Source: an uncultured Acidobacteriota bacterium (lineage in GTDB: Bacteria > Acidobacteriota > Blastocatellia > RBC074). Taken from it: DNA of 64,000 nucleotides. The translations under genes and the position numbers were made by a program. Below, piece by piece: positions 31,526 to 49,318 of this stretch. The notes beneath the pieces were generated by a model. That model worked only from the letters and a program-made list of their open reading frames with translations, did not search any database and was not told where the DNA came from. The stretch spans positions 2,080,001-2,144,000 of the forward strand of contig CAWCKY010000006.1 in assembly GCA_963796275.1 (NCBI GenBank), in the 5' to 3' direction. How positions within the stretch are numbered: position 1 is the stretch's first letter; each line of letters starts with the position of its first letter.

Positions 31526-33460
31526 TCAGTCAGCTTCGGGCCGGTCGTCAAGCCGCAGCACCTCGTGTGGCAGGAGCGAGAACCTCAGATTCCCATTCTC
31601 GGGGGATATCTCATCGCTTTCTTTGGCGCGGAAAGCTTCCGGCGTCAACATCGCTTCCCTGAGATTCCCATGGTTCAATCGTTTCACCCACACGCGCTCA
31701 CCGGCAATGGCTAATCGCGCCACCTGATGGTCCGCCGTCAGATTCGCGATCAGCGTCCGCGTGCGTCTTGCATCACGCAATGTCAAACCGATGACTTTGA
31801 GAGCCTCACTCGACGGTGTGCGCAAAACCTCGCGATTTGCAAATTCTCCCACCTCGGCCAGTACGTGCCAGAGTGGAAAGACGGCGCCGGGAAGGGACGG
31901 AAATTTATCTGGAAGCGGCGAGCCGGTCTCATATTCCATTACGCCGCGCCATCCGGCCGTTTCGTAATAGGTGATGCTGCTCACCCCGCTCTCGGCCAGA
32001 TACTTGATGCTGCCGAGCGTCCAGGCGGCGGCAAAGAGCGACGCTTGACGCGCATCCACCTGCGGCGGCAGTTCGTCTGGCTCCGGTTGAATCTCGGGCC
32101 CGGTTGCGCCGGAGCTGAAGCGCGGTCTGAGTGTCACCGGTGTGATTGACAGTGGCTTGCCGCCGGATAAATGCTTCGCTTTCTGCACGGTAGCCCCTTG
32201 CGCTTCGAGATTTTCCACCAGCGTGAGATGGTCGCTGGCATGCACCTGCGGGCTGACCGCATAACAAAGCAGCTCGGCCTCTTCGGAGGGCAGCGGGCTG
32301 CGGTTGATCTCGGTGAACCAAAGATTAGTCCCCGCGCCGACAGGAACGTCGGGGTCATACTGCCGTAGAGTTTCGCGGGCGAGGCTCACCCAGCGCGCGC
32401 TCGTGACTTTCTCAGCGACATGGAAGATCAGCCACGAAGCGATACGCGGCTTGACGCGGCGCACTCCCGCGAGCAATCGCTGCAGTTCCGCGGGGGCCAT
32501 GTCGGAAAGAAAGAGAGCCGCTTCGAGTTGGGCGTCTAGAGCGAGAGCCTCAGCCGCAGCGCGTTCAAGCTTAGACTCGAAATCGTCCTGTGAAATGTGC
32601 AGATCCACACGCAGATGCGACAGGCCGAGCGCACGCAGCCGCGCCAGCTCAAGTTCGGTCAACGCCCGTCCGTTACTGGCAACCCCCAGCCCGATGCGCG
32701 GCAACTTCCGCGGCGTATGCGCTTCAATGAAAAGCTCGATTTCGTTTGACTCTGAATATGAAATCGAAGCGGGCTCCCGCGCGTTGTCCATGAGCGTTAG
32801 CGTGACGCGCTGCGAAAACCGCTCGCCTTTCATCACTTCGACCGGGAAAGGCAGTTCGAGCGGCGTGCCGTAAGTTTTGAATGACGAGTCCGTCCAGTTA
32901 CGCTGGTCTTCCATCTCGAATGTTTCGCCTTCCATGCGCACTGTGGCATAAATACCAGGCAGAATTTCGTGGGTGATTGCGCGGATATCCTTGAAGGGCT
33001 GGTGCGGCGCAATCTCAGCGGGGAAGATTCCCGGCTCTATCTCCCCGTTCGTATGAATGACTTCACACGACTGCCCGGCACACTCGGTGATCGGATGCAG
33101 AATGCAGAAGCCGATCCGATTGTAATGAAACGTCGAGCGCGCAACCCCGTCGAAACTGAAGACCACCGTGCCATCGGGCTCGCCCGTAATCGTCCCGCGC
33201 CAGTGAAAATCAATCTCGCCTTCCTGGTGCTCGCAGTCGAATTCAATCCGAAACGAATCGCGCTCAATCTCCGATGCGAGATGCGAAACGCGTGACGGCA
33301 TCGTTCCCCAGTTGCGGTCGCGCACGCCTATGTATACGCGGCGCAGCACTTCATAGCGGCCCAGGCGTATATAGCGCAGCCCGCCACTTTCAAACCGCAT
33401 GGAGAGCGGCCCGGCTCGCAATTCAAATTCCTGCCCTGTTGCATGCGTTTCGACGTCCAT
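31526..33460 (-). CDS. apnL: D-apionate lactonase-like protein
   Basis: LRYIR...EVLRR...VRDRNWGT, NRIGFCILHP, FEMEDQRNWTDSSFKTY..PL, FTEINR, QVHASD; size and apiose-gene context agree. Confidence 0.75.
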   Translation of the reverse strand: MDVETHATGQEFELRAGPLSMRFESGGLRYIRLGRYEVLRRVYIGVRDRNWGTMPSRVSHLASEIERDSFRIEFDCEHQEGEIDFHWRGTITGEPDGTVVFSFDGVARSTFHYNRIGFCILHPITECAGQSCEVIHTNGEIEPGIFPAEIAPHQPFKDIRAITHEILPGIYATVRMEGETFEMEDQRNWTDSSFKTYGTPLELPFPVEVMKGERFSQRVTLTLMDNAREPASISYSESNEIELFIEAHTPRKLPRIGLGVASNGRALTELELARLRALGLSHLRVDLHISQDDFESKLERAAAEALALDAQLEAALFLSDMAPAELQRLLAGVRRVKPRIASWLIFHVAEKVTSARWVSLARETLRQYDPDVPVGAGTNLWFTEINRSPLPSEEAELLCYAVSPQVHASDHLTLVENLEAQGATVQKAKHLSGGKPLSITPVTLRPRFSSGATGPEIQPEPDELPPQVDARQASLFAAAWTLGSIKYLAESGVSSITYYETAGWRGVMEYETGSPLPDKFPSLPGAVFPLWHVLAEVGEFANREVLRTPSSEALKVIGLTLRDARRTRTLIANLTADHQVARLAIAGERVWVKRLNHGNLREAMLTPEAFRAKESDEISPENGNLRFSLLPHEVLRLDDRPEAD

Positions 33461-33751
33461 CTCTCGACTCCTCTCCAGCAGTGTTCTACGCCTGTTGCTT
33501 TTCAGTGATATTATTATCTTGTTAGTCTATTCTTCAAGACGACGATGGGTTGTATGAACAACCTAGCCAATTTCAATCAAAGAAGGGCAATCAGTGACGC
33601 TTTGGACACTCGACAAACCTGTGGAGCACGTTTGCGGTCGCCCAAACAAGATCAGGGCCGTCAAATCGAATGGCTCGGCGGGGCGGTTCAACAGATCGCC
33701 GAGCCGAAGGCCGATCGGATTATGCGGGTAGAAGAGAAAGTGGGAAAGCGA

Positions 33752-34780
33752 TCAGCGAACACCGTACTGTCGCTTGTATTGCAGTGGCGTCATCTGCGCC
33801 AGCTTGCGAAATGTGAGGCCGAAGTAGCTCTGGTCGCAAAAGCCTACCTCCTGACTGATCTCCGCCACTGGCTTATCGGTGGTCGCCAGCAGCGCCTGCG
33901 CCTTGGCAATGCGAAAATGGTTGAGATAACTGATGAATGACTGTCCGGTCACCTGTTTGAAGAGCCGCATAAAGTGCGACTCGCTCATGCCCATCACGCC
34001 GGCGGCTGTCACCACCGAGAGCGGCTCGCGGTAATTGGCTTCCAGATAATCGAAGAGCGGCCGCAGTTGCTCGATCGCGCGCTGCCGGCGGTTGAACGTC
34101 TCCACTGCGCCGCGGTGGCCGGCGAAATGGTTTACCAGCAACACCAGGATCATCTTCAGATAAGTTCTGACCGCGAGCCGCGCGCGCGTAGTTGAGGCCG
34201 GCAGCTCGTCGTGGATGCGATTGATCATGCCGAAGACTTCCGCCGGCACGCCCGCTCGCCCAGGGATGACGTGAGGGAATGTGGCGTCCTGCATCAGAAA
34301 AGGCGTCAAATACTCGACGTCTTCGCCACCTGGATCGTTGGCGCGGATGATCTCCGGCAGGAAGTAAAGCGCCGCCGCTTTAACCTTGCCCGGCTTGCTG
34401 CATTGCGGGGGCAGATACATTGTGTGGTATTGCGTGCTGCTGATCACGACCAGGTCACCCGCGCGCATCGTAAAGACCCGATCCTGAACCCGGCATATCA
34501 GTTCGCCCGCCAGCAGGTAGAATATCTCGAAGTAATCATGGCGGTTCATTCGAATGTGACGCCGCTTGTCGTAGATGTAAAAGCGCGCGTCAATCGGACA
34601 CGCGTGGTCGAAAAGCCAGAGGTGTATCCCTTCCGCGTTGATCTGTGGATCGATGAGGGAGAAGGCGTTCTCCCAATGCAGCCTGTTAGCAGCCATAATC
34701 GAGAAAGATAGTTCTCTTATAAATTTAGATGCTATCTTTATAGAAGTCCATCCCGCGCTGTCATTATTCTGCGCCTGCAT
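33752..34780 (-). CDS. AraC-family transcriptional regulator (cupin + HTH); likely start 34696
   Basis: HDYFEIFY cupin; MSESHFMRLFKQVTG, GFCDQSYFGLTFRK..TP.QY. Divergent from the apiose operon. Confidence 0.9.
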   Translation of the reverse strand: MQAQNNDSAGWTSIKIASKFIRELSFSIMAANRLHWENAFSLIDPQINAEGIHLWLFDHACPIDARFYIYDKRRHIRMNRHDYFEIFYLLAGELICRVQDRVFTMRAGDLVVISSTQYHTMYLPPQCSKPGKVKAAALYFLPEIIRANDPGGEDVEYLTPFLMQDATFPHVIPGRAGVPAEVFGMINRIHDELPASTTRARLAVRTYLKMILVLLVNHFAGHRGAVETFNRRQRAIEQLRPLFDYLEANYREPLSVVTAAGVMGMSESHFMRLFKQVTGQSFISYLNHFRIAKAQALLATTDKPVAEISQEVGFCDQSYFGLTFRKLAQMTPLQYKRQYGVR

Positions 34781-34831
34781 TCATTACCATACCGGAATTT
34801 TAGCGATCGCTGACAATCAGGCGATACCTCT

Positions 34832-34878
34832 CCATCCACCCCAGGCACGCGATCCGTTCGCATAACTGGGGTGGACGG
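34832..34878 (+). promoter_or_regulatory. Stem-loop in the leader of the apiose operon
   Basis: CCATCCACCCCAG...CTGGGGTGGACGG, 13-bp stem with one mismatch, ~30 nt upstream of the AGGAGG SD. Confidence 0.45.
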
Positions 34879-34916
34879 CATCTCATCAGCTCCGTCCTGG
34901 GTCCGAAGGAGGACAT

Positions 34917-37900
34917 ATGAATAGCCATCAGCTTCGTCGAACTAACATAGTGCTAGTGTTCCTATCGCTCCTGTTATGCGGAGAATCGCAGGCGCAACTC
35001 GTCACGGGAAGCATCAGCGGAAGCGTGACCGATGCGTCTGGCGGTGCGGTCGCCGGCGCGAAGGTCACGGTCATCAACGAGCGTACGGGGGAAGCGCGTG
35101 CCGCGCAGTCGAACGACGCGGGCGCATTCAACTTTCCGGCACTGCAGCCCGGCGCATATACGATCAAGGTCGAACGCCAGGGCTTCCGCGGCTTGGAGCG
35201 AAAGAACCTGATCCTGACCGCAAACGACAAAATCTCGATCGGCGAGCTTGAGTTGCAGGTCGGGCAGGTTTCAGAGACCGTGCAGGTCACCGCCGAAGGC
35301 TCGATCGTGAAGACCGCCAGTTCGGAGAACTCGGCGCTGCTTTCGGCCACGCAGCTTGATCTGACGCAGGCAAAAGGGCGCGACGTGGTTTCGCTGCTGC
35401 GCGTGCTGCCGGGCGTCTCCTACCAGGCGGGGCAGACCGGCGGCACGTTCGACAGCGATTCGCTGGGCGGTACCTTCGGCACCTTCACGCCCAATATCTC
35501 CGGCACTCGATCGCGCTGGAACACCTTCACGCTCGATGGACAGACCGGGTCGGACGCCGACATCGTCGAGGCCTTCAACGGCTCGACCAGCATGGATGCC
35601 ATCGAGGAGGTCAAAGTCCTGTTCAACAATTATCAGGCCGAGTTCGGGCGCAACACGGGCGGAACTGTGAACATCGTGTCAAAGTCGGGCACGCGCGATT
35701 TTCACGGCAGTCTCTATTGGTACAAACGTCACGAGCAGTTCAACGCCAACGACTTCTTTAACAACCGCACAGGGCTGGCCAAACCGCTCTACCGATACAA
35801 CACGCTCGGCGGCACCATCGGCGGCCCGATTTTCATCCCTAACAAGTTCAACAAGAACCGCGACAGGCTGTTCTTCTTCTACTCGCGCGAAGATTGGCGC
35901 GTGCGCGAGCCGCGCATCCCGAGGCAGGTGACGATGCCGACTGAGGCGGAGCGCAACGGCGATTTCTCGCAGACGGTTGATTTGGGCAATCAGCGAATCT
36001 GGGTGCGCGACCCGCTGCTGAGCGGACTGTGCCAGGGGACACCCGCTAATCCAGCTGCTGGAGTGAACTACCAGGCGGCTTGCTTTCCCCGTAATGTCGT
36101 CCCGGCCGATCGCATCAACAAAAACGGCCAGGCGATCTTAAACCTGTTCCCGCTGCCCAACCGGCTCGACCGCGGCTTGACCCTGGGCAACTACAATTAC
36201 GTCTTCCAGGAGATCACTGAACTGCCCAAGAAGCAGAACCTGCTCAAGGTGGACTATAAGCCAACCGATAAAGACACTATCTCGGTTCGCGGGAGGACGT
36301 GGTGGGCTGACCGGCGCGGCTACGAAGGACTGGCGGCATTCAACTCGAATTGGGATCAACTGCTCCACCACTACCTTTTCACAGAAGACAGCTTGCAGGG
36401 CAGTTACACGCGGATCATCAGCCCCACGCTGGTCAACGAATTTGCCGCCACCTACCGCCTGCTGGGCGAGATCGGCGCGGCGCGCGGCGACAGTGACTTC
36501 GATCCGGTGGTTCGCGCCAAACGCGGGATCACCCTGAGCCAGTTCGATCCAAGTTTGAACCCGCTGGGCTTCATCCCCAACGCGTTCTTCGACGGCGTGC
36601 CTGGCACGGCTCCGACGATCACCTACGACGGGCGCACTCCGATAGACGCGGGCGACACCCGGTTCACATTCGTCAACAACCTGAGTTGGACGAAGGGCAG
36701 TCACGCTTTCAAGTTCGGCACGTACATCGAACGCAACCTGGCCAGCGAAGGCCCGCGCTCGAACTTCGGCGGGAGCTTCAATTTCGGGCGCGATATCAAC
36801 AACCCCCTCGAATCGGGGTATGCCTTTGCCAATGCTCTGCTCGGCAACTTCCAGTCCTACACCGAGTCGAGCGCGCGGACGGCCGGGCGGGGCAAGAATT
36901 ACCTCTTCGACTTTTTCGCCCAGGACACGTGGAAGCTCGGGCGTTTGACGCTCGATTACGGTATGCGCTTCTCGTATTTCTCGCCGTGGCGGCTGCGCGA
37001 CAAGGAGGGTGCGGTGTTCGCGCTCGATCGCTACGACAGATCGAAAGCGCCGGTACTTTACCTGCCCGGCTGTAACGTCGATACGACACCTTGCCCGAAC
37101 GCCGAATTACGGGCGCGCAACCCGCTCAATAACGAACTGCTGCCGCGCTACTTCATCGGCGCGTATGTGCCGAACACGGGCGACGTGATCAACGGAATGG
37201 TGCTGGCGACAGACGAGAGTTATCCGGACGGATTCATCAAGCAAGAGCCTCTTCAATTGGGACCACGCTTCGGTTTCGCCTACGACATGTTCGGAGACGG
37301 CAAGACCGCCATTCGCGGCGGTTTTGGAGTTACGAAGCAGACTATCCCTTCATCGGGCAACTTCCTTGGCGGGTTGAACAGTAATCCGCCGCTGCAGTTC
37401 AATCCGCAGGTTTTCTACAGAAATCTCGACACTTTCTTGGATTCGGCCACGGTGCGCTTCCCCGGCGGTGTGCTCGCACACGAATTGGACAACAAAACAC
37501 CGAGCGTCTACAACTACTCGCTCAGCATCCAGCGCGACATCGGCTTCAATACGGTAGTCGAGGTCTCTTACGTCGGCAACGTCGGGCGGCATTTGATCAT
37601 GCAGCGGAACCTCAACGCCGTGCCTTACGGAGCGCGCTTCCTGCGGCAGAACGCCGACCAAACCGCACAGGGGCGTGCGCTGAACGACAATTTCTTCCGC
37701 CCGTTCCCGGGCTTTGGAGACATCACTTACGTCGAGAATTCCGGCACTTCCAATTACAATGCGCTACAAACGTCATTGAACCGCCGCTTCTCGCGCGGGT
37801 TCCAGTTTGGCCTGGCCTATACGTGGTCGAAGACGATGGATTACGGCAGCACCGACCGCAGTGGGTTGCCGATGTATCGGCCTTACGGCGTGTGGTCTTA

Positions 37901-38483
37901 CGGCGAGGCGTCGTTTGATCAGACGCACGTCTTCATCTTCAACTACACGTGGGATTTGCCGAAGGCGAGCAGGGTTTTGGACAATCGGTTCACGCGCGTC
38001 ATTTTCGATAATTGGCAGCTATCGGGCGTGACGGCGTTCGTGAGTGGGACGCCGCTGGGCGTGGGCTTCTCGACAACCGACAACGCCGACATCACGGGCG
38101 GCGGCGACGGCGCGCGCCCCAACATGATCGCAAAGGCACCACTCGACGGCGGCGAACGCAGCTTCGACAAGTGGTTTAACACAGCAGCGTTTGCCCGTCC
38201 GGCTCGGGGCGACTTCGGCAATGCTCCGCGAAACCTTGTGCGAGGACCGGGGTCGAACAACTGGGATGTGTCGGTGTTCAAAAACGTGCCGGTCAAAGGC
38301 GAGGCGCGATACTTCCAATTCCGCTGGGAGATATACAATCTGTTCAACCACACCCAATTTCAGAGCGTGGACACGGGAGCGCGGTTCGATCCGGCGGGCA
38401 ATCAGGTCAACACGCGATTCGGGCAGGTGACGGCGACGCGGCCTCCGCGCGTCATGCAGTTCGCGCTCAGTTTCAAGTTCTGA
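34917..38483 (+). CDS. TonB-dependent receptor (Oar-like), first gene of the apiose operon
   Basis: GSISGSVTDASG, KSGTRDFHGS, FAQDTWK, GPRFGFAYD, C-terminal FALSFKF; SD AGGAGG. Confidence 0.92.
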   Translation: MNSHQLRRTNIVLVFLSLLLCGESQAQLVTGSISGSVTDASGGAVAGAKVTVINERTGEARAAQSNDAGAFNFPALQPGAYTIKVERQGFRGLERKNLILTANDKISIGELELQVGQVSETVQVTAEGSIVKTASSENSALLSATQLDLTQAKGRDVVSLLRVLPGVSYQAGQTGGTFDSDSLGGTFGTFTPNISGTRSRWNTFTLDGQTGSDADIVEAFNGSTSMDAIEEVKVLFNNYQAEFGRNTGGTVNIVSKSGTRDFHGSLYWYKRHEQFNANDFFNNRTGLAKPLYRYNTLGGTIGGPIFIPNKFNKNRDRLFFFYSREDWRVREPRIPRQVTMPTEAERNGDFSQTVDLGNQRIWVRDPLLSGLCQGTPANPAAGVNYQAACFPRNVVPADRINKNGQAILNLFPLPNRLDRGLTLGNYNYVFQEITELPKKQNLLKVDYKPTDKDTISVRGRTWWADRRGYEGLAAFNSNWDQLLHHYLFTEDSLQGSYTRIISPTLVNEFAATYRLLGEIGAARGDSDFDPVVRAKRGITLSQFDPSLNPLGFIPNAFFDGVPGTAPTITYDGRTPIDAGDTRFTFVNNLSWTKGSHAFKFGTYIERNLASEGPRSNFGGSFNFGRDINNPLESGYAFANALLGNFQSYTESSARTAGRGKNYLFDFFAQDTWKLGRLTLDYGMRFSYFSPWRLRDKEGAVFALDRYDRSKAPVLYLPGCNVDTTPCPNAELRARNPLNNELLPRYFIGAYVPNTGDVINGMVLATDESYPDGFIKQEPLQLGPRFGFAYDMFGDGKTAIRGGFGVTKQTIPSSGNFLGGLNSNPPLQFNPQVFYRNLDTFLDSATVRFPGGVLAHELDNKTPSVYNYSLSIQRDIGFNTVVEVSYVGNVGRHLIMQRNLNAVPYGARFLRQNADQTAQGRALNDNFFRPFPGFGDITYVENSGTSNYNALQTSLNRRFSRGFQFGLAYTWSKTMDYGSTDRSGLPMYRPYGVWSYGEASFDQTHVFIFNYTWDLPKASRVLDNRFTRVIFDNWQLSGVTAFVSGTPLGVGFSTTDNADITGGGDGARPNMIAKAPLDGGERSFDKWFNTAAFARPARGDFGNAPRNLVRGPGSNNWDVSVFKNVPVKGEARYFQFRWEIYNLFNHTQFQSVDTGARFDPAGNQVNTRFGQVTATRPPRVMQFALSFKF

Positions 38484-38549
38484 TCTGTCATCATCCGTCA
38501 AATCCGTGTACCATCGCGTATTCGAATTATGCATCCAGAGTAAATCTCA

Positions 38550-39815
38550 ATGCTCAATGACCGAGTCATCGCTACTTATCGAATCGAGACTGCGCACTCG
38601 CTCGATTTCGCCGCAGAAGTAATGGCGGGCGAGCAATCTTGCGGCACGTTCGTGCGCGTGCCGGGAGAGACAGTCGAGTTGCGCCGGCGCCACGCCGCGC
38701 GCGTCGAACGCATCACCGAACTCGAAGAGGTTGATGAGCCGGCGCTTCCTTTTTCAAAGCCGCCGAAAGATCACACCGGCAGATTCAAGCGCGCCGAGGT
38801 CGTCCTCTCGTTCCCTCTGGAAAACATGGGCGCGTCGCTGCCGAACTTGCTGGCGACAGTCTCCGGCAACCTCTACGAGTTGCGCGAATTTTCCGGTCTG
38901 AAGCTGATCGACCTGGAACTGCCTGTCGCGTTCGGCCAGAAGTATCAAGGCCCGCAATTCGGGATCGCAGGCACACGTCAATTGTCGGGAGTGGAAGGCC
39001 GCCCGCTCATCGGCACGATCATCAAACCGAGCGTCGGCCTTTCCCCCGAACAAACGGCCGAACTGGTAAGAACGCTGATCGAAGCAGGACTCGATTTCAT
39101 CAAGGATGACGAGTTGATGGCCGACCCGCCGCATTCGCCTTTTGGGAAACGAGTCGCCGCCGTGATGCGCGTCATCAATAATCACGCGGACAGGACGGGC
39201 AGGAAAGCGATGTACGCCTTCAACGTGACGGATGAAATTGACGCGATGTTGCGGCATCACGACCAGGTCCTCGAATCGGGCGGGACGTGCGTTATGGTGA
39301 GTTTGAACCACACGGGCGCACCGGCTGTCGCTCATCTGCGCAGATACTCCCAATTGCCGATTCACGGCCACCGTAACGGCTGGGGGATGCTGACGCGCTC
39401 GCCCTACCTCGGCCTGGAATTTAAGGCTTATCAGAAGATCTGGCGGTTGGCTGGAGTTGATCATCTGCACTGCAACGGCCTGCGCAACAAATTCTGGGAG
39501 CCGGATGACTCGGTCATCGCGAGCGCGCGCGCCTGTCTGATGCCGTTGTTTGAAGCGAACCCTTACGTCGCGATGCCCGTGCTCGCGTCGGCGCAGTGGG
39601 CGGGGCAGACGGTGGATTCATACCGGGCGCTCGGTACGGTGGATGTGATGTACGTCTGCGGCGGCGGCATCGTCGCGCATCCGGCGGGCATCGCGGCGGG
39701 CGTCGCCAGCGTCAGGCAAGGCTGGGAGGCGGCGCTGGCCGGGAAGACTTTGGAAGAGTTCGCTACAGATCATGTTGAGTTGCGCCAGGCATTAGAGAAG
39801 TTCGGCGGCAGCTAA
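38550..39815 (+). CDS. RuBisCO-like protein (form IV); probable 3-oxo-isoapionate-4-phosphate transcarboxylase/hydrolase (OiaT) or decarboxylase (OiaX)
   Basis: [55 protein letters not shown]; clustered with oiaK and apnO. Confidence 0.85.
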
Positions 39816-39849
39816 AAACCTAATCTACAACCTATTGAGAGAGAGGGGC

Positions 39850-41286
39850 ATGCTAACCATCATTCGAGCTCTGCTTCTGATTGCAGTCGTCGCGACCGCG
39901 TCAATAACTGTTTTCAGTCAGCAGCAAAAACCTCAACGGTTGAAGGTCAGCGAAAATAAACGTTTCATCGTCAAAGCCGACAACTCGCAGTTCTTCTACC
40001 TCGGCGACACGGCGTGGGAACTCTTTCACCGCCTCAACCGCGAAGAGGCTGATCGTTATTTGAAGAACCGCGCCGACAAGGGCTTCACAGTCATTCAAGC
40101 GGTCGCGCTAGCAGAACTTGACGGGCTGAACACGCCGAACCCGTTCGGCCATCGCCCGTTCTCGGACAACGACCCGACCAGGCCGGATGTGAAGGACGGC
40201 GCGGCGAACGATTACTGGGATCACGTGGATTACATCGTCAGGAAGGCTGAATCGCTGGGTCTTTACATCGGATTCCTGCCGACCTGGGGCGACAAGTGGA
40301 ACCGCGGTCGGGGAGCCGGGCCGGAGTTGTTCAATGTGCAGAATGCTGAAAGCTATGGCGAATGGCTCGGGCAGCGTTATCGTGAAGCGCCGAACATCAT
40401 CTGGATTCTGGGCGGCGATCGTTCGCTCGAAACCGAGACGCACAAAGAAATGATGCGCGCGATGGCTCGCGGTTTGCGCAAAGGCGACGGCGGCGCGCAC
40501 CTGCAGACGCTGCACCCGCGCGGCGGCGAGGGGTCGTCGGCGCATTTTCACAACGACGACTGGCTCGATTTCGACATGCGGCAGAACGGCCACGTTACCG
40601 AATTCAACCCGCGCTACGAGCAGACGCGGGTCGATTACGACCGCACGCCGATCAAGCCTGTAATTGACGGTGAGCCGATTTACGAGGATCATCCGATCTC
40701 GTTCCGCGCGAAAGAGCTCGGGCATTCGGTGGCGGCTGACGTGCGAAGGCCGATGTACTGGAACCTTTTCACCGGCGCGTTCGGCCACACTTATGGCCAC
40801 CACTCGGTCTGGCAGATGTGGCAGCCGGGGCGACAACCGATCAACAACCCGCTGATGCCGTGGTACGAAGCGATCGACCAGCCGGGCGCGGCGCAGATGC
40901 AGTACGGGCGTCGTCTAATGGAATCGCGGCCGTTTCTGACGCGCGTGCCCGACGATTCGGTCATCGTCGCGGCCGACCCCCCAAGTTCGGTTCCCGGCGC
41001 GGGCTTGAAACGCTACGTCGCCACGCGTGATTCCGAAGGCAGCTACGCAATGGTATACGTTCCAGCGGGGCGGCCGTTCAAAGTGAGGATGGACAAGATC
41101 AACGGCGCACAGGTGAAGGCGTGGTGGTTCAACCCGCGCGACGGCAAGGCGACCTTAATCGGCGAATTCCCGAACTCCGGCGAACGCGAATTCGCCCCGC
41201 CGACAAAGGGCGAGAATCTCGACTGGGTGCTCGTGCTGGACAACGCGGCAAAGAACTTCCCGCCGCCGGGCGTGGCCAAGAGATGA
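39850..41286 (+). CDS. Secreted GH140/DUF4038 apiosidase-like glycoside hydrolase with C-terminal collagen-binding-like domain
   Basis: [64 protein letters not shown]; signal peptide after SD GAGAGGGG. Confidence 0.85.
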
Positions 41287-42656
41287 TCAGTGAAAGATTG
41301 CTTCTCAGTTTTTACGGTGACGACCTCACCGGCTCGTGCGACGCGATGGAGGCGCTGGCGCTTGGCGGTGTGCGCACGGCTCTGTTTCTGGAGCCACCGA
41401 CCCGGGAGTTGTTGCGCGAAGGCTTCCCCGACTTGCAGGCCGTGGGCGTCGCGGGGGTGAGCCGGATAATGACCCCCGCGCAAATGGATGAGGCACTGCC
41501 TGATCTCTTCACGCGGATGAAGCGCCTGGACGCAGGCGTCTTTCACTATAAAGTCTGCTCGACATTCGACTCTTCGCCAAAGGTCGGCAGCATCGGTCGC
41601 GCGATTGACATCGGGCGGCGAGTCTTCAATTCGCGCTTCACGCCGCTGCTGGTGGGCGCGCCCGCGCTCAAGCGCTATTGCCTGTTCGGCAATCTGTTCG
41701 CGACTGTCGGAGACGAAATCTTTCGCCTGGATCGCCATCCGACGATGAATCGCCATCCGGTGACGCCGATGCTTGAGAGCGACCTGCGGCTTCACCTGTC
41801 GCGGCAGACCGAAAAGTCGATTGCGCTGCTCGACATCCTCAATCTCACCGGTTCGCAGGCCGAGGTTGATCGAAACATCTCTCGCGTGCTGGAAAGCCGG
41901 CCCGAGATCGTGATCTTCGACACACTGGACGATGCGCGATTGGAGGAGGCGGGTCGCCTCATCTGGTCGCAGTGCGGCGATGCGACGCTCTTCGTCGCTG
42001 GATCGTCGGGAGTCGAATATGCACTCGTCGCTTACTGGCAAACGGCAGGCGTGCTCCCCGGGAGCATCGACTTGAACCACGCAGCCACTGTGGCGAAGCA
42101 GATCATCGTTATGTCAGGCAGTTGCTCGCCCGTGACCGGATGGCAGATCGAGTGGGCAGTTGAAAATGGTTTTGGCGGTATCGAACTCAACGCCGCCCGG
42201 TTGGCAAACTATGATCTTTGCGCAGCGGAGCGCGCAGACGTAAAGCGAAAGGCGTTGGACGTTCTGGCGAGCGGCCGCAGCGTCGTTCTCTTCTCAGCGC
42301 TCGGCCCCGACGACCCGAAGATCGAGGCCACGGTTCGTGAGATGTGCGCGGCGGGATGCGACCCGCAAGTCGCGCGTGAACGGCTGGCCGAGCAGCAAGG
42401 GATAATTTTGCGCGAACTGCTCGAAATGACAGGATTGCGACGAGCCGTGATCGCGGGTGGTGACACGTCCGGCCACGCGGCACGGCAATTGGGCATTTAC
42501 GCGCTCGAACTGCTCGCGCCGATTGCGCCCGGCTCGCCGCTTTGCCGCGCGTTGTCGAGCGACTCGCGCTTCGACGGTCTTGAGATCGCGCTCAAAGGCG
42601 GGCAGGGCGGCAAGGCGGATTACTTCGGAAGAATTCTGACTGGGGTTGGACACTGA
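41283..42656 (+). CDS. oiaK: DUF1537 four-carbon acid sugar kinase; probable 3-oxo-isoapionate kinase
   Basis: [51 protein letters not shown] 41283 overlaps the upstream TGA (ATGA). Confidence 0.82.
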
Positions 42657-43700
42657 ATGGCAGACCTTCGTTTCGCAATCATCGGCACGGGCTTCTGGTC
42701 GCAGTTTCAGCTCGCCGCGTGGCGCGAGCTCGATGGCGTGGAGTGCGTTGCGCTATGCAATCGGACGCGCTCCCGGTCTGAAGAACTGGCCCGCCGCTTC
42801 GGAGTCCCGGCGGTCTATGAAGACGCGCGAGAGATGCTCCGCCGCGAAAAGCTCGATTTCGTCGACATCATCACGGACGTGGATACGCACAGCCGGTTCG
42901 TTCATCTCGCCGCCGAACACAAGCTGCCGGTGATTTGCCAGAAACCGATGGCGCCGTCTCTGGCCGAAGCCGCGGCTATGACAAAAGTCTGCCGCGAGGC
43001 CGGCGTCGGATTCTTCATCCACGAGAACTGGCGCTGGCAGGCGCCGATTCGCGAGTTGAAGAAGCTGTTGGACAGCGGCGCGATCGGCACCGTCTTCCGC
43101 GCGCGCATCCACTTCTGTTCGAGCTTTCCGGTCTTTGACAATCAACCCTTTCTCAAAGACCTTGGGCAGTTCATCCTGACCGACATCGGCAGCCACATCC
43201 TGGACACGGCGCGATTTCTCCTGGGCGAGGCAGAAACGCTGGCATGCCAGGTGCACCGCGTTCATCCTGATATTAAAGGCGAGGACGTGGCCACCGTGAT
43301 GATGAAGATGGAGAGCGGCGCGACGGTGGTCTGCGAGATGAGCTACGCGAGCCGTCTCGAACACGAACGCTTCCCCGAAACCTATGTTTACGTCGAAGGC
43401 GAAGAGGGGTCGATCGAGCTGGGGCCGGATTACTGGGTTCGCATGACCACGGCTGTTGGCACGCACGCGCGGCGCTACCCGCCACCGCGCTATGGGTGGG
43501 CCGATCCGGCTTACGACCTGGTGCAGGCGAGCATCGTCCCGTGCAACGCCGACCTGCTGCTGGCCTTGCAGGGGAAAACGATCGCCGAGACGACCGGCGA
43601 AGATAACTTGAAGACCATCCGACTCGTCTTCGCCTGCTACGATGCGGCGCGAAACCAACAGATCATTGATTTAAAGAGCGGGCCGAGGGAGAAAGAATGA
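42657..43700 (+). CDS. apsD: Gfo/Idh/MocA oxidoreductase; probable D-apiose dehydrogenase
   Basis: IIGTGFWS..QL.AW, ICQKPMAP, HENWRWQ, DIGSHILD, GEDVAT; operon context. Confidence 0.75.
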   Translation: MADLRFAIIGTGFWSQFQLAAWRELDGVECVALCNRTRSRSEELARRFGVPAVYEDAREMLRREKLDFVDIITDVDTHSRFVHLAAEHKLPVICQKPMAPSLAEAAAMTKVCREAGVGFFIHENWRWQAPIRELKKLLDSGAIGTVFRARIHFCSSFPVFDNQPFLKDLGQFILTDIGSHILDTARFLLGEAETLACQVHRVHPDIKGEDVATVMMKMESGATVVCEMSYASRLEHERFPETYVYVEGEEGSIELGPDYWVRMTTAVGTHARRYPPPRYGWADPAYDLVQASIVPCNADLLLALQGKTIAETTGEDNLKTIRLVFACYDAARNQQIIDLKSGPREKE

Positions 43701-44551
43701 TTTCAATTGCCTTGATGGGCGCGGGCGGCAAGATGGGTTGCCGCATCACCGACAGGTTGAAGGATTCGGAATACCGGATGTTTTACGTAGAAGTCGGCGG
43801 GGTTGGAATTGCGAATTTGGCCGAGCGTGGAATTGCGCCCACGCCGCAGGATCAGGCGCTGGTCAAGGCCGACGCAGTGATCCTCGCTCTGCCCGACAAC
43901 CTGATCGAACACATCTCTGCCGAGATCGTGCCTAAGCTGAAGGGCGGCGCGCTGGTCATTTGCCTCGATCCCGCCGCACCGCTGGCGGGCAAAGTGCGAC
44001 ACCGCGACGACCTGGCTTACTTCGTCACACATCCGTGTCACCCCTCCGTCTTCAACTATGATGCGACGCCCGAGGAGCGCCGCGATTTCTTCGGCGGCAT
44101 TGCGGCAAAGCAGAACATCGTGTGCGCGCTGATGCTCGGCGACGAAGACGATTATGTGCGTGGCGAGGAGATCGCGAAGAAGATGTACTCACCCGTCATC
44201 AGATCGCACCGCGTGACGGTTGAGCAGATGGCGATCCTCGAACCGGCGTTATCGGAGACGACGGCGCAGACCTGTTTGCAGGTCGTGCGAGAAGCGATGG
44301 ACGAGGCGATCCGGCGCGGCGTGCCAGCCGAAGCTGCGCGCGACTTCATCCTCGGACACATCAACATCCAACTGGCGATCTTCTTCGGCGAATTGAACAT
44401 TCAATTTTCAGACGGGGCGAAGAAGGCTATGGCGCGTGCCCGCGACCAGATCATCAAACCGGATTGGAAAAGAGTCTTCGAGCCTGAGAACATCCGCGAG
44501 TGTCTGGAAGCGATCACCCGCTCACCTCAATCATCGAAAGGAGATCAATAA
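43697..44551 (+). CDS. apnO: D-apionate oxidoisomerase
   Basis: IALMGAGGKMG.R, LALPD, LDPAAP, THPCHP, CALM.G, QMAILEP.LSE, FILGH, FSD; ATGA coupling to the upstream gene. Confidence 0.85.
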   Translation: MISIALMGAGGKMGCRITDRLKDSEYRMFYVEVGGVGIANLAERGIAPTPQDQALVKADAVILALPDNLIEHISAEIVPKLKGGALVICLDPAAPLAGKVRHRDDLAYFVTHPCHPSVFNYDATPEERRDFFGGIAAKQNIVCALMLGDEDDYVRGEEIAKKMYSPVIRSHRVTVEQMAILEPALSETTAQTCLQVVREAMDEAIRRGVPAEAARDFILGHINIQLAIFFGELNIQFSDGAKKAMARARDQIIKPDWKRVFEPENIRECLEAITRSPQSSKGDQ

Positions 44552-45565
44552 ATGAACCGCCTGATCATAACCGCGGCGGGGCTCGTCATTGCCGCTATCT
44601 TCTCGTCCTGCAATTCCGCGCCGTCAGGACCGAAGCAGATTACCGTCGGCGTCTCGTTCGAGACTTTGCAGACCGAATATTGGGTTGCGGGGTTCGAGGC
44701 GATTAAGTCCGAGCTCAAAGAACGCAACATTCAGGTGCTCGAAGCCATCGCCGACGGGGACGCCAACCGTCAGCTCGAACAGATCAACAACTTCATCGTG
44801 CGCAAGGTTGACGGCATCATCGCCGTGCCCAAAGACGCGAAGACGATCATCCCGATGATCAAGGCGGCCAATGCCGCCAACATCCCGATCGTGCTCTACA
44901 ACCGCCCCGCCGACCAGACCGAGGCGAAGTCGGTCGCCGTAGTTGCCGACAACTACGCGATCACGAAGGCAACTGTCGAATATATGTGCGAGCAGGCGAA
45001 GCGGTCGAGCAAGAGGTACAAGGCCGCTATCCTGATCGGCGATCTCGGCGACATCAATGCAGTCGGGCGGCGCGACGGGTTTGAGAACGCAGTGAAAGCC
45101 TACGGGGACGTAATTGAAGTCGTCGCGCGCATCCCGACGGAATGGAATGGCGAGAAGGCGCGCGCCGGCGTAACCAACGCGCTGCAAGCCAATCCCGACA
45201 TCAACTTCATCTTCACCTCGTCGGACTTCATGCTGCCGCCGATCATCCAGGCGCTCAAAGAAGCGGGCAAATACAAGAAGATCGGCGAGGAAGGACACGT
45301 CCTGCTAGGCGGTTTCGACGGCGACGCTACCGCGTACCAGATGCTCGTTGACGGCTACCTCGACGCCGATGGCGTGCAGGACGTCTATTTCGAGAGCGAG
45401 GCGGCGGTGCAGGCGGTGCTGGACATGAGTGCCGGCAAAGAGGTGCCTGCGAAAATACTCGACCAGGGCTTTGTGATTCATCAAAGCAATTTGAAGGAGA
45501 TGGCTGGCAAGATGTGGGGCGCGCAGGCGAAGAAGCAGGTGGCCGGAAACGCCGGAAACAATTGA
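44552..45565 (+). CDS. Sugar ABC transporter substrate-binding lipoprotein (RbsB-like)
   Basis: Lipobox-like FSSC, QLEQINNFI.RKVDGII, IPIVLYNR, GGFDG. Confidence 0.88.
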   Translation: MNRLIITAAGLVIAAIFSSCNSAPSGPKQITVGVSFETLQTEYWVAGFEAIKSELKERNIQVLEAIADGDANRQLEQINNFIVRKVDGIIAVPKDAKTIIPMIKAANAANIPIVLYNRPADQTEAKSVAVVADNYAITKATVEYMCEQAKRSSKRYKAAILIGDLGDINAVGRRDGFENAVKAYGDVIEVVARIPTEWNGEKARAGVTNALQANPDINFIFTSSDFMLPPIIQALKEAGKYKKIGEEGHVLLGGFDGDATAYQMLVDGYLDADGVQDVYFESEAAVQAVLDMSAGKEVPAKILDQGFVIHQSNLKEMAGKMWGAQAKKQVAGNAGNN

Positions 45566-46587
45566 TGGAAGATTCCGCGAAACAACGACGAGATGGTTGG
45601 GCGTTCGTCTTTGAAGCAAAGGGGATGCGCAATCCGTTTGTGTCCGAATTATCCGTCTTCTACCTGGCGATTCTTTACTTTCTAGCGCTCACGCCGTTCA
45701 CGCCCGGGCTAGCCTCGGCGGAGAACGCGGCCAACATCTTTTCGAATCTGCTGCCGCTGCTTATTGTCGCCCTCGGACAGACGGTTGTGCTGATCGCCGG
45801 CGGGATCGATCTGTCTGTGACTTCAACTATCGCTCTGTCGAGCGTGATTGGCGCGATGGTGATGAGCGGCGACCAGGGCTGGATGGGAGGAAGCCGCTGG
45901 GCGACGCCTGCGGCTATCGTCGCGATGCTGCTGGCGGGCGCCGTGATCGGGTTACTCAATGGAGCGGCGATCACGCTTCTCCGAATGCCGGCGTTCATCG
46001 TCACGCTGACGACGATGATGTTCGCAAGCGGGCTGGCCGTCTGGCTGACGAAATCGAAGACGATCTACAACCTACCGCCGACATTTAATGCCATCGGGAA
46101 AGGCTCGTTCTTCATCGTCCCGTACGCGTTCGTCGTAGCGACGCTCGTCGCACTGTCTTTGCATGTTGCGCTGAGGCAGACACTGTTCGGGAGGTGGCTT
46201 TACGCGATCGGGCACAACGCAAAAGCGGCGGAGGTTTCCGGCGTGCCGGTCGGGCGGACAACCCGGTTGGCATACGTCATCAGTGGTCTGTGCGCGGCGG
46301 TGACTTCGATTCTCTACACCGGACGAATAGAGACCGGTTCGCCAATCTTGGGGCAGCGCATTCTGCTGGACGTGATCGGCGCGGCTGTCATCGGCGGGAC
46401 GTCGTTGTTCGGCGGCAAGGGCAAAGTCATCTGGACGGTCTCAGGCGTGCTCTTCATCACACTGATTGACAACAGCCTGAACATGCTCGGTCTCTCGTAC
46501 TTTTTCATCATGATGGTCAAGGGCGCGGTGATCCTGCTGGCTGCGCTGCTCGATGCGTGGAGGAACCGATTGCTCGCGGGGCGTTAA
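45565..46587 (+). CDS. Sugar ABC transporter permease (RbsC-like)
   Basis: GGIDLSV, PAFIVTL, GRWLYAIG.N..AA..SG, AAVIGGTSLFGG.G; TGATG overlap start. Confidence 0.9.
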   Translation: MEDSAKQRRDGWAFVFEAKGMRNPFVSELSVFYLAILYFLALTPFTPGLASAENAANIFSNLLPLLIVALGQTVVLIAGGIDLSVTSTIALSSVIGAMVMSGDQGWMGGSRWATPAAIVAMLLAGAVIGLLNGAAITLLRMPAFIVTLTTMMFASGLAVWLTKSKTIYNLPPTFNAIGKGSFFIVPYAFVVATLVALSLHVALRQTLFGRWLYAIGHNAKAAEVSGVPVGRTTRLAYVISGLCAAVTSILYTGRIETGSPILGQRILLDVIGAAVIGGTSLFGGKGKVIWTVSGVLFITLIDNSLNMLGLSYFFIMMVKGAVILLAALLDAWRNRLLAGR

Positions 46588-46640
46588 GCCGTGGGGCGGG
46601 ATTGCATCTGATGCCGCTGGTGAATTCGTTTTGGACAGCA

Positions 46641-46726
46641 AATCAGTACCGCGAGCGGTAGCGAGCGTGGCTCTCGCAAAGGATTTACGCCGGAAGTCAC
46701 GCTCGCTACCGCTCGCGGTACTGATT
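46641..46726. repeat. REP-like element, family B, perfect 29-bp inverted arms inside the ABC operon
   Basis: AATCAGTACCGCGAGCGGTAGCGAGCGTG ... CACGCTCGCTACCGCTCGCGGTACTGATT. Confidence 0.85.
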
Positions 46727-46770
46727 CGTATCGCATCTCGCCCTATCTCAATAAGCGATTCGACAAGGTC

Positions 46771-48315
46771 ATGGGCGGAACGATCCTCGAATACGATAAG
46801 ATCGAAAAGAGTTTCTTTGGTGTGCGTGTGCTGCGCGGCGTGAGTTTCACCCTCGCGGAAGGCCACATTCTCGGACTGGTGGGAGAGAACGGCGCAGGCA
46901 AATCCACGCTGATGAACATTCTCGGCGGAGTGATCCCGCTCGATGCTGGGCGAATGCTGCTGGGCGGAGAAGAGTATTCACCCCGCGCCGGCCCCGCGGA
47001 GGCGCGCGCACGTGGCGTCGCCTTCATCCATCAGGAATTGAATTTGTTCACGAATCTGAGCGTCGCCGAGAACATCTTCATCACCGATTTTCCAAAGCAT
47101 CGGAAGTGGCTGATCAATCGCCGCGAAATGAAGGCCAGAACTCGGTCGCTCCTGGAATCGCTCGACCTGAGCGTCGCGCCGGAGGCGTTGGTCGAAAATC
47201 TCTCGCCCGGCGAACGACAACTGGTCGAGATCGCCAAGGCAATGAGCAGTTCGCCGAAGATCATCATCCTCGACGAGCCGACGACTTCGCTCACCGCGCG
47301 CGAGACCGAGCGGTTGTTCACGATACTTGAACGGCTACGGGCGCAGGGCGTCTCGATGATCTATATCTCGCACAACCTCGGCGACGTGCTGCGGGTGTGC
47401 GACGACGTGGTCGTGCTGCGCGACGGCGAGGTAGTCGGGGCGGGACGCAAAAGCGAATTCACGGAGGAGCGGATGATCGCGCTGATGGTCGGGCGGACGC
47501 TCGATCAGCTTTTCCCGGAGCGAGCGGGCGCTGTTTCGCGAGAAATCGCGCTTGAGGTCAACGGTCTCACGCAGACCGGCGTAATCGAAGACATCAGCTT
47601 TCGTTTGCATAAAGGCGAGGTGGTGGGCGTCGCGGGATTGATGGGCGCGGGGCGCACGGAGTTGGCGCGGGTGCTGTTCGGACTTGTGCCCGCGGAGCAC
47701 GGCGAGGTATTTATCGACGGCAAACCGGCGCCGCCCACGCCGCGCGGCAGAATTCAAAGCGGCATGGCCTTCCTCACCGAAGACCGGCGGGCAGAGGGGC
47801 TGATGATGGAGGCGGGCATCGCCGACAACATCGCGCTCGCATCGCTGCCATCATTCCAGCATCAAGGCGTGCGCGCGATCACAGGTTTGCTCAACCAGAC
47901 GGAGATTGCGAGCGCAGTCGGCCGCGTCGCACAAAAGGTGCAAATCAAGGGAGCGTCGAACATGCGCCAGGCGGTGAAGACCTTGAGCGGCGGCAACCAG
48001 CAGAAGGTCGTGCTGTCGCGGTGGCTGCTCGGTAAACCTTCCGTCTTCATCCTCGATGAACCGACGCGCGGGGTTGACGTCGGCGCCAGGTCGGAGATTT
48101 ACCGGATCATCAATGATCTGGCGGCGAAGGGGGCGGGCGTGCTTCTGATCTCTTCGGAGATCGAAGAATTGATCGGCCTCTGCGATCGCATTTTGGTGAT
48201 GGCCTGGGGCAGGATCGCCGACTGCGTCGAGCGCGCCGATTTCGACCGTGAACGGATTTTGCGCTCGGCGCTCGGCAAAGCTGACCAGACAAAAAATTGT
48301 GGGACGGAAATATAG
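46771..48315 (+). CDS. Sugar ABC transporter ATP-binding protein (RbsA-like, two NBDs)
   Basis: GENGAGKST, ILDEPT, LSGGNQQK, ILDEPTRGVDVG. Confidence 0.95.
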   Translation: MGGTILEYDKIEKSFFGVRVLRGVSFTLAEGHILGLVGENGAGKSTLMNILGGVIPLDAGRMLLGGEEYSPRAGPAEARARGVAFIHQELNLFTNLSVAENIFITDFPKHRKWLINRREMKARTRSLLESLDLSVAPEALVENLSPGERQLVEIAKAMSSSPKIIILDEPTTSLTARETERLFTILERLRAQGVSMIYISHNLGDVLRVCDDVVVLRDGEVVGAGRKSEFTEERMIALMVGRTLDQLFPERAGAVSREIALEVNGLTQTGVIEDISFRLHKGEVVGVAGLMGAGRTELARVLFGLVPAEHGEVFIDGKPAPPTPRGRIQSGMAFLTEDRRAEGLMMEAGIADNIALASLPSFQHQGVRAITGLLNQTEIASAVGRVAQKVQIKGASNMRQAVKTLSGGNQQKVVLSRWLLGKPSVFILDEPTRGVDVGARSEIYRIINDLAAKGAGVLLISSEIEELIGLCDRILVMAWGRIADCVERADFDRERILRSALGKADQTKNCGTEI

Positions 48316-48346
48316 AAATCCGCCATCGTGCGGTATAGAGGGGCTC

Positions 48347-49318
48347 GTGACTAAAGCGCGTGACATCATTGAAATGTTTCTGCTCCCGCGGGCGTCGCTG
48401 ATACTCTTTGCCGCGGTCTTCGCGGCGTTCGGCCTTCTGTCCCCGAAATTCCTCGAGGCGCCGAATCTGGTCAATCTTCTGATCCAGTCATCTTCAATCG
48501 CCATTACCGCCATCGGGATGACGTTCGTGCTGCTGACAGCGGGAATCGATCTTTCAGTCGGTTCGGTCATGTTCATCACGGCGATCGTGGCGGGGAAAAT
48601 GGTTTTGAGCGGGCAGCCGCTCCCATTGGCTATCGCGGTTGTCCTGCTCGCCGGCATCGCCTGTGGCGCGGTCAATGGCCTGCTCGTTACGCGGCTCGCA
48701 ATCCCGGCCTTCATCGTGACGCTGGGTACGCTTTATCTGGGCCGTGGATTCGGGCTGTGGATGACCGAGACGCGGGCAATGAATCTGCCGGAGAACCTGC
48801 TCCAGATCGGAGCGGCGCGCGTCTTCGGGGCGCCGATTCCGATTCTCATATTCCTGGTCGTGTTGGTGGTCGCACACGTCGTGCTGGCCGAGACGCCGTT
48901 CGGACGGCAGATTTACGCGACCGGCAATGACCGCGAGGCTGCCCAAAAGGCGGGGATTAACACAACGCGCATCATTTTTCTGGTATATGTCGTGAGCGGT
49001 GTGTGTGCGGCCATCGGCGGTTTGGTCTCTGTGGCGCAACTTGGCGCGGTCTCGCCGACATTCGGCAATAGCCGAGAGTTCGCGGCGGTGGCGGCAGCGG
49101 TGCTCGGCGGGACGAGCCTGTTCGGAGGAAGGGGTAAAGTCTTTCCCGGCACGGTCCTGGGCGCGATTCTGCTACAGACGGTCGATAACGGACTGGTCAT
49201 CATCAACGCCGACCCGTACCTCTACCCGATGGTATTGAGTTCGATCATATTTCTGGCAGTGCTCACCGACAGTTTGCGTCATGGTTTGTGGCGGAAGCCT
49301 CGCCGTCAGCCTCGGTGA
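48347..49318 (+). CDS. Sugar ABC transporter permease (second RbsC-like)
   Basis: AGIDLSVG, PAFIVTLG, AAVLGGTSLFGG.G; GTG 48347 follows AGAGGGG. Confidence 0.88.
   Translation: MTKARDIIEMFLLPRASLILFAAVFAAFGLLSPKFLEAPNLVNLLIQSSSIAITAIGMTFVLLTAGIDLSVGSVMFITAIVAGKMVLSGQPLPLAIAVVLLAGIACGAVNGLLVTRLAIPAFIVTLGTLYLGRGFGLWMTETRAMNLPENLLQIGAARVFGAPIPILIFLVVLVVAHVVLAETPFGRQIYATGNDREAAQKAGINTTRIIFLVYVVSGVCAAIGGLVSVAQLGAVSPTFGNSREFAAVAAAVLGGTSLFGGRGKVFPGTVLGAILLQTVDNGLVIINADPYLYPMVLSSIIFLAVLTDSLRHGLWRKPRRQPR

Follow-up and report, generated by a model that had tools for sequence, protein, structure and literature searches.

A Candidate Locus for Apiose Harvest and Degradation

Positions 31526-49318 of a 64,000-nucleotide stretch of DNA from an uncultured acidobacterial genome of 9.46 Mb on 7 contigs (the window, C6:2080001-2144000) carry a group of genes that we read as one regulon for the harvest and degradation of D-apiose. 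We put the probability of this sequence-based reading at roughly three in four. A unit for the release, uptake and oxidative catabolism of apiose had been claimed in an original prediction made from the letters of the sequence, and this claim is supported by homology and by conserved gene order. All of the genes listed in that prediction are intact open reading frames (ORFs) with strong domain or family matches in Pfam and NCBIfam. The features are, in order:

31526-33460, minus strand: ApnL-like D-apionolactonase, 644 residues, no signal peptide (NCBIfam NF049900)
33752-34780, minus strand: AraC-family regulator with a cupin sensor domain, divergent from the operon (HTH_18, Cupin_2, AraC_binding)
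34917-38483, plus strand: TonB-dependent outer-membrane receptor of acidobacterial type, N-terminal signal (OMP_b-brl_4, CarboxypepD_reg)
38550-39815, plus strand: RuBisCO-like protein (RLP), probably OiaT-type (RuBisCO_large)
39850-41286, plus strand: GH140 beta-D-apiofuranosidase candidate, Sec signal peptide (PF13204, PF12904)
41283-42656, plus strand: DUF1537 kinase, OiaK-like (3-oxo-isoapionate kinase) (SBD_N, NBD_C, NF042436)
42657-43700, plus strand: Gfo/Idh/MocA oxidoreductase, candidate D-apiose dehydrogenase (ApsD) (GFO_IDH_MocA and C3 domain)
43697-44551, plus strand: ApnO-like D-apionate oxidoisomerase (PGDH_C, PDB 5t57)
44552-45565, plus strand: periplasmic sugar-binding protein (SBP) of CUT2 type, lipoprotein-like N-terminus (Peripla_BP_4)
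45564-46587, plus strand: ABC permease 1 (BPD_transp_2)
46641-46726, no strand: palindromic repeat element between permease 1 and the ATPase, 32-nt arms
46771-48315, plus strand: ABC ATPase with two nucleotide-binding domains (ABC_tran)
48248-49318, plus strand: ABC permease 2, start uncertain (48248 or GTG 48299) (BPD_transp_2)

Through apiose, side chains A and B of rhamnogalacturonan II (RG-II) are anchored to the pectin backbone. Apiose residues also bear the borate cross-links of RG-II, and the sugar occurs as a decoration on many plant glycosides. Discovery of the known bacterial apiose pathways started from transporters and was mostly in Proteobacteria. In the mechanism that we propose for the window, the TonB-dependent receptor would carry an apiose-bearing oligosaccharide or glycoside into the periplasm, where the GH140 enzyme, which has a signal peptide, would cut off D-apiose. 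The lipoprotein SBP, the two permeases and the double ATPase would import the freed sugar. In the cytoplasm, the Gfo/Idh/MocA enzyme would oxidize apiose to apionolactone, ApnL would open the lactone to give D-apionate, ApnO would convert this to 3-oxo-isoapionate, and OiaK would phosphorylate the latter to 3-oxo-isoapionate-4-phosphate. The RLP would then split this product, most likely as an OiaT that yields 3-phosphoglycerate and glycolate, and less likely as a decarboxylase. The AraC protein would be the likely sugar-responsive activator. Judged by eye, only the N-termini of the receptor, GH140 and the SBP look like signal peptides, and those of the five catabolic enzymes do not.

The ATGA and TGATG overlaps described earlier were present when the junctions were read on the sequence. 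GH140 and the kinase overlap by ATGA, which places the kinase start at 41283, although the ORF caller had opened that frame at 41121. Likewise, the TGATG overlap with the SBP stop places the start of permease 1, called as an ORF from 45514, at 45564. The remaining close junctions are TGAATG (kinase to Gfo/Idh/MocA), ATGA (Gfo/Idh/MocA to ApnO) and TAAATG (ApnO to SBP). For GH140 itself, a start at ATG 39850 is more likely than at TTG 39835, where the ORF opens. The tight packing that had been noted holds for most junctions, which overlap or abut, but not for permease 1 and the ATPase, which are separated by 183 nt. The unit had also been described as SusD-less, and no SusD-family match was found among the ORFs scanned between 31.5 and 54.3 kb. 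The ApnL, RLP, OiaK and ApnO genes are intact and single copy in the genome, as judged by tblastn. A scan for promoters and terminators gave no more sites than in shuffled sequences, and we draw no operon boundary from it; the window contains no tRNA genes, and nothing in 29000-50000 matched Rfam.

Catabolic Enzymes

For the lactonase, the RLP and the kinase, an apiose-pathway NCBIfam model was the best or only strong match. The equivalog cut-offs of these models are 750 bits for ApnL (NF049900), 700 for OiaX (NF042437) and 700 for OiaK (NF042436), and by their profile scores the three window proteins are diverged relatives, not certified equivalogs. The ApnL-like protein had NF049900 as its only NCBIfam match (E = 9.4e-97, 325 bits), with residues 9-580 aligned to positions 13-590 of the 595 in the profile, and no Pfam family matched it.

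The Gfo/Idh/MocA protein matched no apiose-specific NCBIfam model, its best match being iolG (101.8 bits). It is 42% identical to its counterpart in a canonical ApnL/OiaX/OiaK cluster of Shinella pollutisoli (L092; related loci are designated by L and a number), where the gene has the transporter on one side and an ApnL that passes the cut-off on the other. The protein is a candidate apiose dehydrogenase, an assignment that rests on genomic context.

The ApnO-like protein matched PGDH_C (E = 1.2e-65) and PDB 5t57 (E = 2.5e-86) and has the HPCHP motif at residues 112-116. In a mutagenesis study of AaApnO covering 15 residues, D68, D92, H113, H116, E183, E188, F218 and S239 are reported to be essential (PMC13753588). 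Mapped by offset and motif rather than by an alignment with AaApnO, 12 of these 15 residues are identical in the window protein at a constant offset of -1 (D67, D91, H112, H115, F132, E182, S186, E187, F217, H221, F237 and S238), all eight essential ones included; the alignment with 5t57 is consistent with this mapping. The pocket positions V225, L226 and C242 are replaced by I, Q and A, respectively.

The kinase has the two-domain build of DUF1537 proteins (SBD_N, E = 5.7e-49; NBD_C, E = 1.9e-30). Clustering with threonate or erythronate subfamilies, a concern raised in the original prediction, was not seen: the protein scored 518 bits on OiaK, which is the best family by 346 bits, as the model for 3-oxo-tetronate kinase gave 172 bits and the one for D-threonate kinase 51.

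The RuBisCO-Like Protein

Oxidative pathways for D-apiose and D-apionate were reportedly described by Carter et al. in 2018 (Nat Chem Biol). In route 1 the RLP is an OiaX-type decarboxylase, and in route 2 (ApnO-OiaK-OiaT) it is an OiaT. The window RLP matched RuBisCO_large (E = 2.7e-67) and PDB 3nwr (E = 1.7e-129), and aligned over its full length to the OiaX model (516.5 bits, E = 4.4e-155; next model 233 bits). The protein had been called OiaT/OiaX, and the model match supports an apiose-pathway RLP; the score, however, falls short of the OiaX cut-off, and the protein is probably OiaT-type. We regard an OiaT function, with 3-phosphoglycerate and glycolate as predicted products, as somewhat better than an even bet. 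It is favored by the position of the RLP in the tree, by an active-site motif, by the OiaX scores, by pairs of paralogues and by the single TIM-family gene of the genome.

Ten RLP relatives from other phyla score 438-526 bits on OiaX, all below 700, and among them is an NCBI-named OiaT (P0118) at 514 bits. In two genomes, a true OiaX (783 and 761 bits, respectively, on this model) occurs alongside a window-type RLP (438 and 475 bits), which indicates that the two types are separate paralogues. These genomes are Shinella pollutisoli (L079/L092, genome G001) and a Lichenihabitans metagenome-assembled genome (MAG; L076/L093, genome G003). The L079 locus has a second ApnO-like gene (46% identity) after the RLP, and no kinase was found in that locus.

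A tree of 88 RLP rows was built by a quick IQ-TREE search with SH-aLRT support only; of its two outgroup rows, one came out in the wrong place, on a long branch. The window RLP falls into a clade of 24 rows (SH-aLRT 97) that also takes in the two rows named OiaT by databases, as well as 9 of the 11 rows with GH140 in their context. True OiaX lies on a long branch in another group, nested inside the wider RLP family. In a comparison with a real RuBisCO from one of these genomes, the metal and carbamate motif K-D-D-E is conserved in the window RLP, as are H-x-H-R and D-H-L-H...K, while true OiaX has D-Q-F-Q in place of D-H-L-H.

Alternatively, the locus could be the same apiose unit with a diverged OiaX-type decarboxylase, which would produce L-erythrulose-1-phosphate and leave the finishing isomerases to be encoded elsewhere. 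OiaX is, after all, the only NCBIfam RLP model that matches well, and true OiaX is nested in the wider family rather than being its distant sister. The decarboxylase route requires an extra TIM-like L-erythrulose-1-phosphate isomerase. No such extra gene was found in the genome, which has a single TIM-family gene, although its three RpiB-family loci could supply the second isomerase. The score of the window RLP on OiaX is level with that of the named OiaT; its identity is 47% to true OiaX but 53-80% to the members of its own group; both types are retained in two genomes; and the histidine pair that is replaced in true OiaX is retained. We consider route 1 unlikely on this basis, and OiaT the preferred assignment.

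GH140, Receptor, Regulator and Importer

The GH140 protein matched the PF13204 Apiosidase family over almost the whole profile (positions 1-319 of 320; E = 1.9e-116, 389.6 bits against a cut-off of 26.5), followed by the C-terminal beta-sandwich domain PF12904 (Collagen_bind_2; E = 2.7e-28, 98.1 bits, positions 1-92 of 92). Its closest solved match was PDB 8t9w (E = 1.4e-148, residues 36-478 aligned), for which "Apiosidase" is the label of the entry. The Bacteroides structure 3kzs/5msy was matched at E = 2.1e-84, and the 8t9w and 3kzs alignments both span the two domains. There are three PF13204 matches and one GH28 match in the genome, and no other glycosidase or pectin enzyme in the locus. 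A 30%-identical GH140-family gene is found about 220 kb away (C6:2341074-2342324).

The receptor matched OMP_b-brl_4 (E = 4.1e-190) and CarboxypepD_reg (E = 3.7e-18), and tblastn gave 99 matches to it in its own genome. The AraC protein matched HTH_18 (E = 2e-22); one relative (L009) has a 49%-identical AraC gene directly upstream of its RLP. The transporter is a CUT2 sugar importer set, consisting of the SBP (Peripla_BP_4, E = 1.2e-48; best PDB match a ribose-binding protein, E = 3.3e-29), two BPD_transp_2 permeases (E = 3.9e-36 for permease 1 and 1.1e-44 for permease 2) and a tandem ATPase with two stretches of ABC_tran (E = 5.1e-55).

Synteny Across Related Loci

When named genome contigs were scanned with the RLP, 174 relatives were confirmed, and the best 80 loci were used for counting. 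Window proteins were searched by tblastn, requiring at least half of the query to be covered at E < 1e-10, and GH140 was counted within 10 kb. Several contigs end early and the genomes are related, so the counts are lower bounds. The nearest relatives are MAGs labelled Blastocatellia or Acidobacteriota, in keeping with the acidobacterial host that had been suggested from the sequence.

An OiaK homologue adjoins the RLP in 69 of the 80 loci. ApnO is present in 30, the Gfo/Idh/MocA gene (at 40% identity or more) in 20, and ApnL (31-48% identity) in 19; the SBP (at 50% or more) occurs in 14, all of which have ApnO. A receptor of at least 45% identity (49-51%) lies upstream of the RLP in five loci, all from acidobacterial relatives. 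Where the Gfo/Idh/MocA gene was found in relatives, it is upstream of the RLP, whereas in the window it is inside the operon.

GH140 at 45% identity or more accompanies 10 of the 30 loci with ApnO and none of the 50 without it; four further loci have GH140-like matches only at 25-28%. By their labels, five phyla are represented among the ten loci: Acidobacteriota (Blastocatellia-type and Bryobacteraceae), Myxococcota (Myxococcales), Armatimonadota (Chthonomonadales), Planctomycetota (Pirellulales) and Bacteroidota (Cytophagales); two of the ten, L003 and L005, bear a label that we judge to be wrong (see below). At least four gene orders occur, with GH140 after the RLP, after the transporter, upstream beside ApnL, or after ApnO. 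Such repeated recruitment in varied positions points to a functional link with apiose catabolism, and we take it as good evidence, at the level of gene content, that GH140 is functionally tied to ApnO-type apiose catabolism.

A distant second GH140-like gene (23-28% identity), which the window does not have, was seen in the clusters of acidobacterial relatives. In three of them (L096:8369-9541, L003:8622-9827 and L005:4375-5547), the gene separates the receptor from the RLP, where the window has an interval of 66 nt; in two (L027:329-1627 and L006:1070-2320) it is upstream of the receptor, and in one (L009:7609-8886) upstream of AraC. The L003 and L005 MAGs are labelled Heliomicrobium (Bacillota) and carry an acidobacterial-type cluster with a TonB receptor and an RLP 79-80% identical to that of the window; the label is probably wrong.

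The sister group of the window-side RLPs in the tree is a clade of 33 rows (L028-L081, SH-aLRT 100) from Verrucomicrobiota, Planctomycetota and Bacteroidota, in which the RLP is paired with a DUF1537 kinase and there is no ApnO within 10 kb. In L059:10001-14529 and L075:9986-14608, the RLP-kinase pair is followed by a gene of the Asp/Glu racemase family and an SBF-family transporter; one locus has a SASA esterase, DUF5703 and a GH88-like gene as neighbors, the other an altronate dehydratase, SDR and MR_MLE. This clade may serve another acid-sugar pathway.

Distribution in Acidobacteriota

Of 301 Acidobacteriota genomes sampled evenly across the phylum, 6 gave a close RLP match (E < 1e-60): the genome of the window, the other two from its family, and three that belong to a single further genus, in which the RLP and kinase stand alone. 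Within this sample, the full architecture is confined to the window's own family. The two other family members have the order RLP-GH140-OiaK-ApnO-SBP-permease-ATPase-permease. In one of them (G021, locus L096 with its continuation L101), a receptor precedes this run and ApnL closes it; the contig of the other (L095) ends inside permease 2, and neither receptor nor ApnL was found on it. The window locus is a compacted, rearranged version of this rare module, which was probably acquired horizontally.

Comparison with Known Systems

The predicted chemistry of the window locus is identical to that of route 2, whose clusters likewise have adjoining ApnO-, OiaK- and RLP-type genes and an ABC transporter with a binding protein. 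The window unit differs in its host phylum, in the inclusion of ApnL and a Gfo/Idh/MocA dehydrogenase, in the GH140 and TonB receptor added in front, and in that its proteins with apiose models score below the NCBIfam equivalog cut-offs. According to PMC13753588, the original authors had seen no route 2/3 clusters that include ApnL together with a putative dehydrogenase. The route 1 cluster L092 has ApnO, SBP, ATPase, permease, Gfo/Idh/MocA, ApnL, RLP and OiaK in common with the window, the RLPs being 47% and the SBPs 28% identical. Unlike in the window, its ApnL (823 bits) and OiaX (783 bits) are both above the cut-offs, and neither a GH140 nor a receptor was found in its 20-kb stretch.

BT1012 of the gut bacterium Bacteroides thetaiotaomicron is said to be the GH140 beta-D-apiosidase of the RG-II polysaccharide utilization locus (PUL) of that organism (Ndeh et al., 2017). 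The window GH140 belongs to the same family, has the same two-domain build and, like BT1012, is periplasmic (by prediction). However, BT1012 is part of a SusC/SusD PUL with many RG-II enzymes, whereas the window GH140 is a sole glycosidase tied to apiose catabolism. The receptor is of the CarboxypepD_reg and OMP_b-brl_4 type, in contrast to the SusC/SusD pair of a Bacteroidota-type PUL. According to a preprint (bioRxiv 10.64898/2026.03.13.711244), B. thetaiotaomicron releases D-apiose into the medium without consuming it, and most of five Flavobacterium strains tested freed D-apiose without using it.

The pathway and every type of component are thus known, while the pairing of GH140 with oxidative apiose catabolism seems to be unreported; a literature search, which did not cover Carter et al. 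2018 or supplementary files, returned no paper linking GH140 or a TonB receptor to apiose catabolism genes. The understanding of the pathway itself is unchanged by the locus. What the locus provides is a proposed acidobacterial route, open to testing, that leads from plant apiosides to central metabolites, a functional label, based on context, for a GH140 clade and for RLPs outside Proteobacteria, a candidate apioside receptor, and a candidate apiose-binding protein unlike the crystallized one.

Substrate and Alternative Readings

Several observations weigh against a regulon for apiose as described here. All three equivalog cut-offs were missed (ApnL 325 of 750 bits, RLP 516.5 of 700, kinase 518 of 700). 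The SBP is closest to a ribose binder (3.3e-29) and matched PDB 5ibq, which we take to be an apiose-bound binding protein, at only 2e-16. The OiaT names are automatic and are carried by 2 of the 120 homologues listed, and the tree contains no characterized OiaT; a homologue search starting from a betaproteobacterial RLP gave generic names only and located no characterized OiaT, and a protein-cluster search with the RLP gave only generic RuBisCO-family cluster names. The count of 10 in 30 for GH140, drawn from related genomes and early-ending contigs, does not amount to a statistical test. The palindromic insert in the transporter genes could disturb their expression. AaApnO oxidizes D-erythronate, D-ribonate and other sugar acids, several of them with similar efficiency (PMC13753588, Table 1), so that ApnO alone cannot fix the substrate. 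Finally, with no other pectin enzyme in the locus and one GH28 match in the genome, RG-II itself may not be the substrate.

The last point bears on the proposed source of the sugar. Release of apiosyl residues is supported, but pectin RG-II, which the original prediction had offered as a source alongside apiosyl glycosides, is doubtful. Whole RG-II was considered as a substrate and rated doubtful, the locus being without other pectin enzymes and the genome having one GH28 and three PF13204 matches. We infer that a scavenger of small apiosides or freed apiose is a better fit than a primary RG-II degrader.

It is also conceivable that the genes serve another sugar acid or branched sugar, such as D-erythronate, D-ribonate or L-lyxonate, that the GH140-family enzyme frees a different furanose, and that apiose is at most a side substrate. 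The breadth of AaApnO, the changes at V225, L226 and C242 in the ApnO pocket and the resemblance of the SBP to ribose binders would all fit such a function, as would the 33-row sister clade, whose RLP-kinase pairs occur in a different context without ApnO and thereby indicate that the RLP family has other substrates. However, an ApnL-like lactonase, a GH140 and an aldose dehydrogenase jointly point to apiose in particular, GH140 co-occurs only with ApnO-bearing loci, and the kinase is far nearer to OiaK than to the tetronate and threonate kinases. We therefore consider another primary substrate improbable. It is more improbable still that GH140 and the receptor are chance neighbors of an apiose operon with no part in it: with 99 matches in the genome, a receptor beside any operon would be unremarkable, and a similar one is present in just 5 of the 80 loci, but GH140 lies inside the operon and overlaps the kinase start, close GH140 genes recur in varied positions and five phyla in ApnO loci and not in the others, and the receptor precedes the RLP in five acidobacterial relatives.

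Taking apiose as the substrate, a broader and more speculative picture can be drawn, which we offer as a possibility that is more likely wrong than right. GH140 and the oxidative apiose cassette might form a "release and consume" module that has been repeatedly assembled and spread horizontally in at least five phyla. This GH140 clade might then represent a general periplasmic exo-apiosidase for small apiosides, its hosts might be apiose scavengers living on the leftovers of primary RG-II degraders, and the acidobacterial receptor might be the first TonB-dependent transporter assigned to apiosides.

Palindromic Insert and Neighboring Sequence

Within the 183 nt that separate permease 1 from the ATPase lies a palindrome whose 32-nt arms are 97% complementary. 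It belongs to a repeat roughly 89 bp long, to which the genome gave 82 matches when both strands were counted; identity extends over 89 bases at five other places in the genome, and a further copy is found in the window at 16565-16647. The same junction has short gaps in relatives, which indicates that the palindrome at 46641-46726 is a local insertion. The repeat looks like a REP- or MITE-like family.

Behind ApnL, the window contains a tandem array at 29517-30230 with a 93-bp period, 7.8 copies and internal palindromes, and with a super-period of 183 bp (98% matches); the array gives rise to a spurious, repetitive 262-residue ORF at 29411-30199 on the minus strand. To the eye, the translation of a short minus-strand ORF at 30174-30419 is similar to the C-terminal portion of LacI-type regulators; this ORF may be what is left of a gene in the non-coding stretch of about 1.3 kb behind ApnL.

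Downstream of permease 2, beyond the end given in the original prediction, come three further genes in the same orientation, with successive gaps of 39, 9 and 12 nt. They encode, at 49358-54268, a PSCyt1/PSCyt2/PSD1 protein, a DUF1501 protein and an Amidohydro_2 protein, the latter two with Tat signals. We left them out of the unit: in three relatives permease 2 is followed by ApnL, and tblastn gave 27 DUF1501 and 5 PSCyt matches across the genome. In the Chthonomonadales locus L016, PSCyt and DUF1501 genes are directly upstream of a Gfo/Idh/MocA-RLP-OiaK-ApnO-GH140 run. The proximity of these genes to apiose genes could be either a coincidence or the sign of a periplasmic accessory. Further downstream (54568-57817), a frameshift that is either real or a sequencing error divides a TonB-type receptor between two overlapping ORFs, of which 54568-56202 matches profile positions 1-251 and 56060-57817 positions 262-838.

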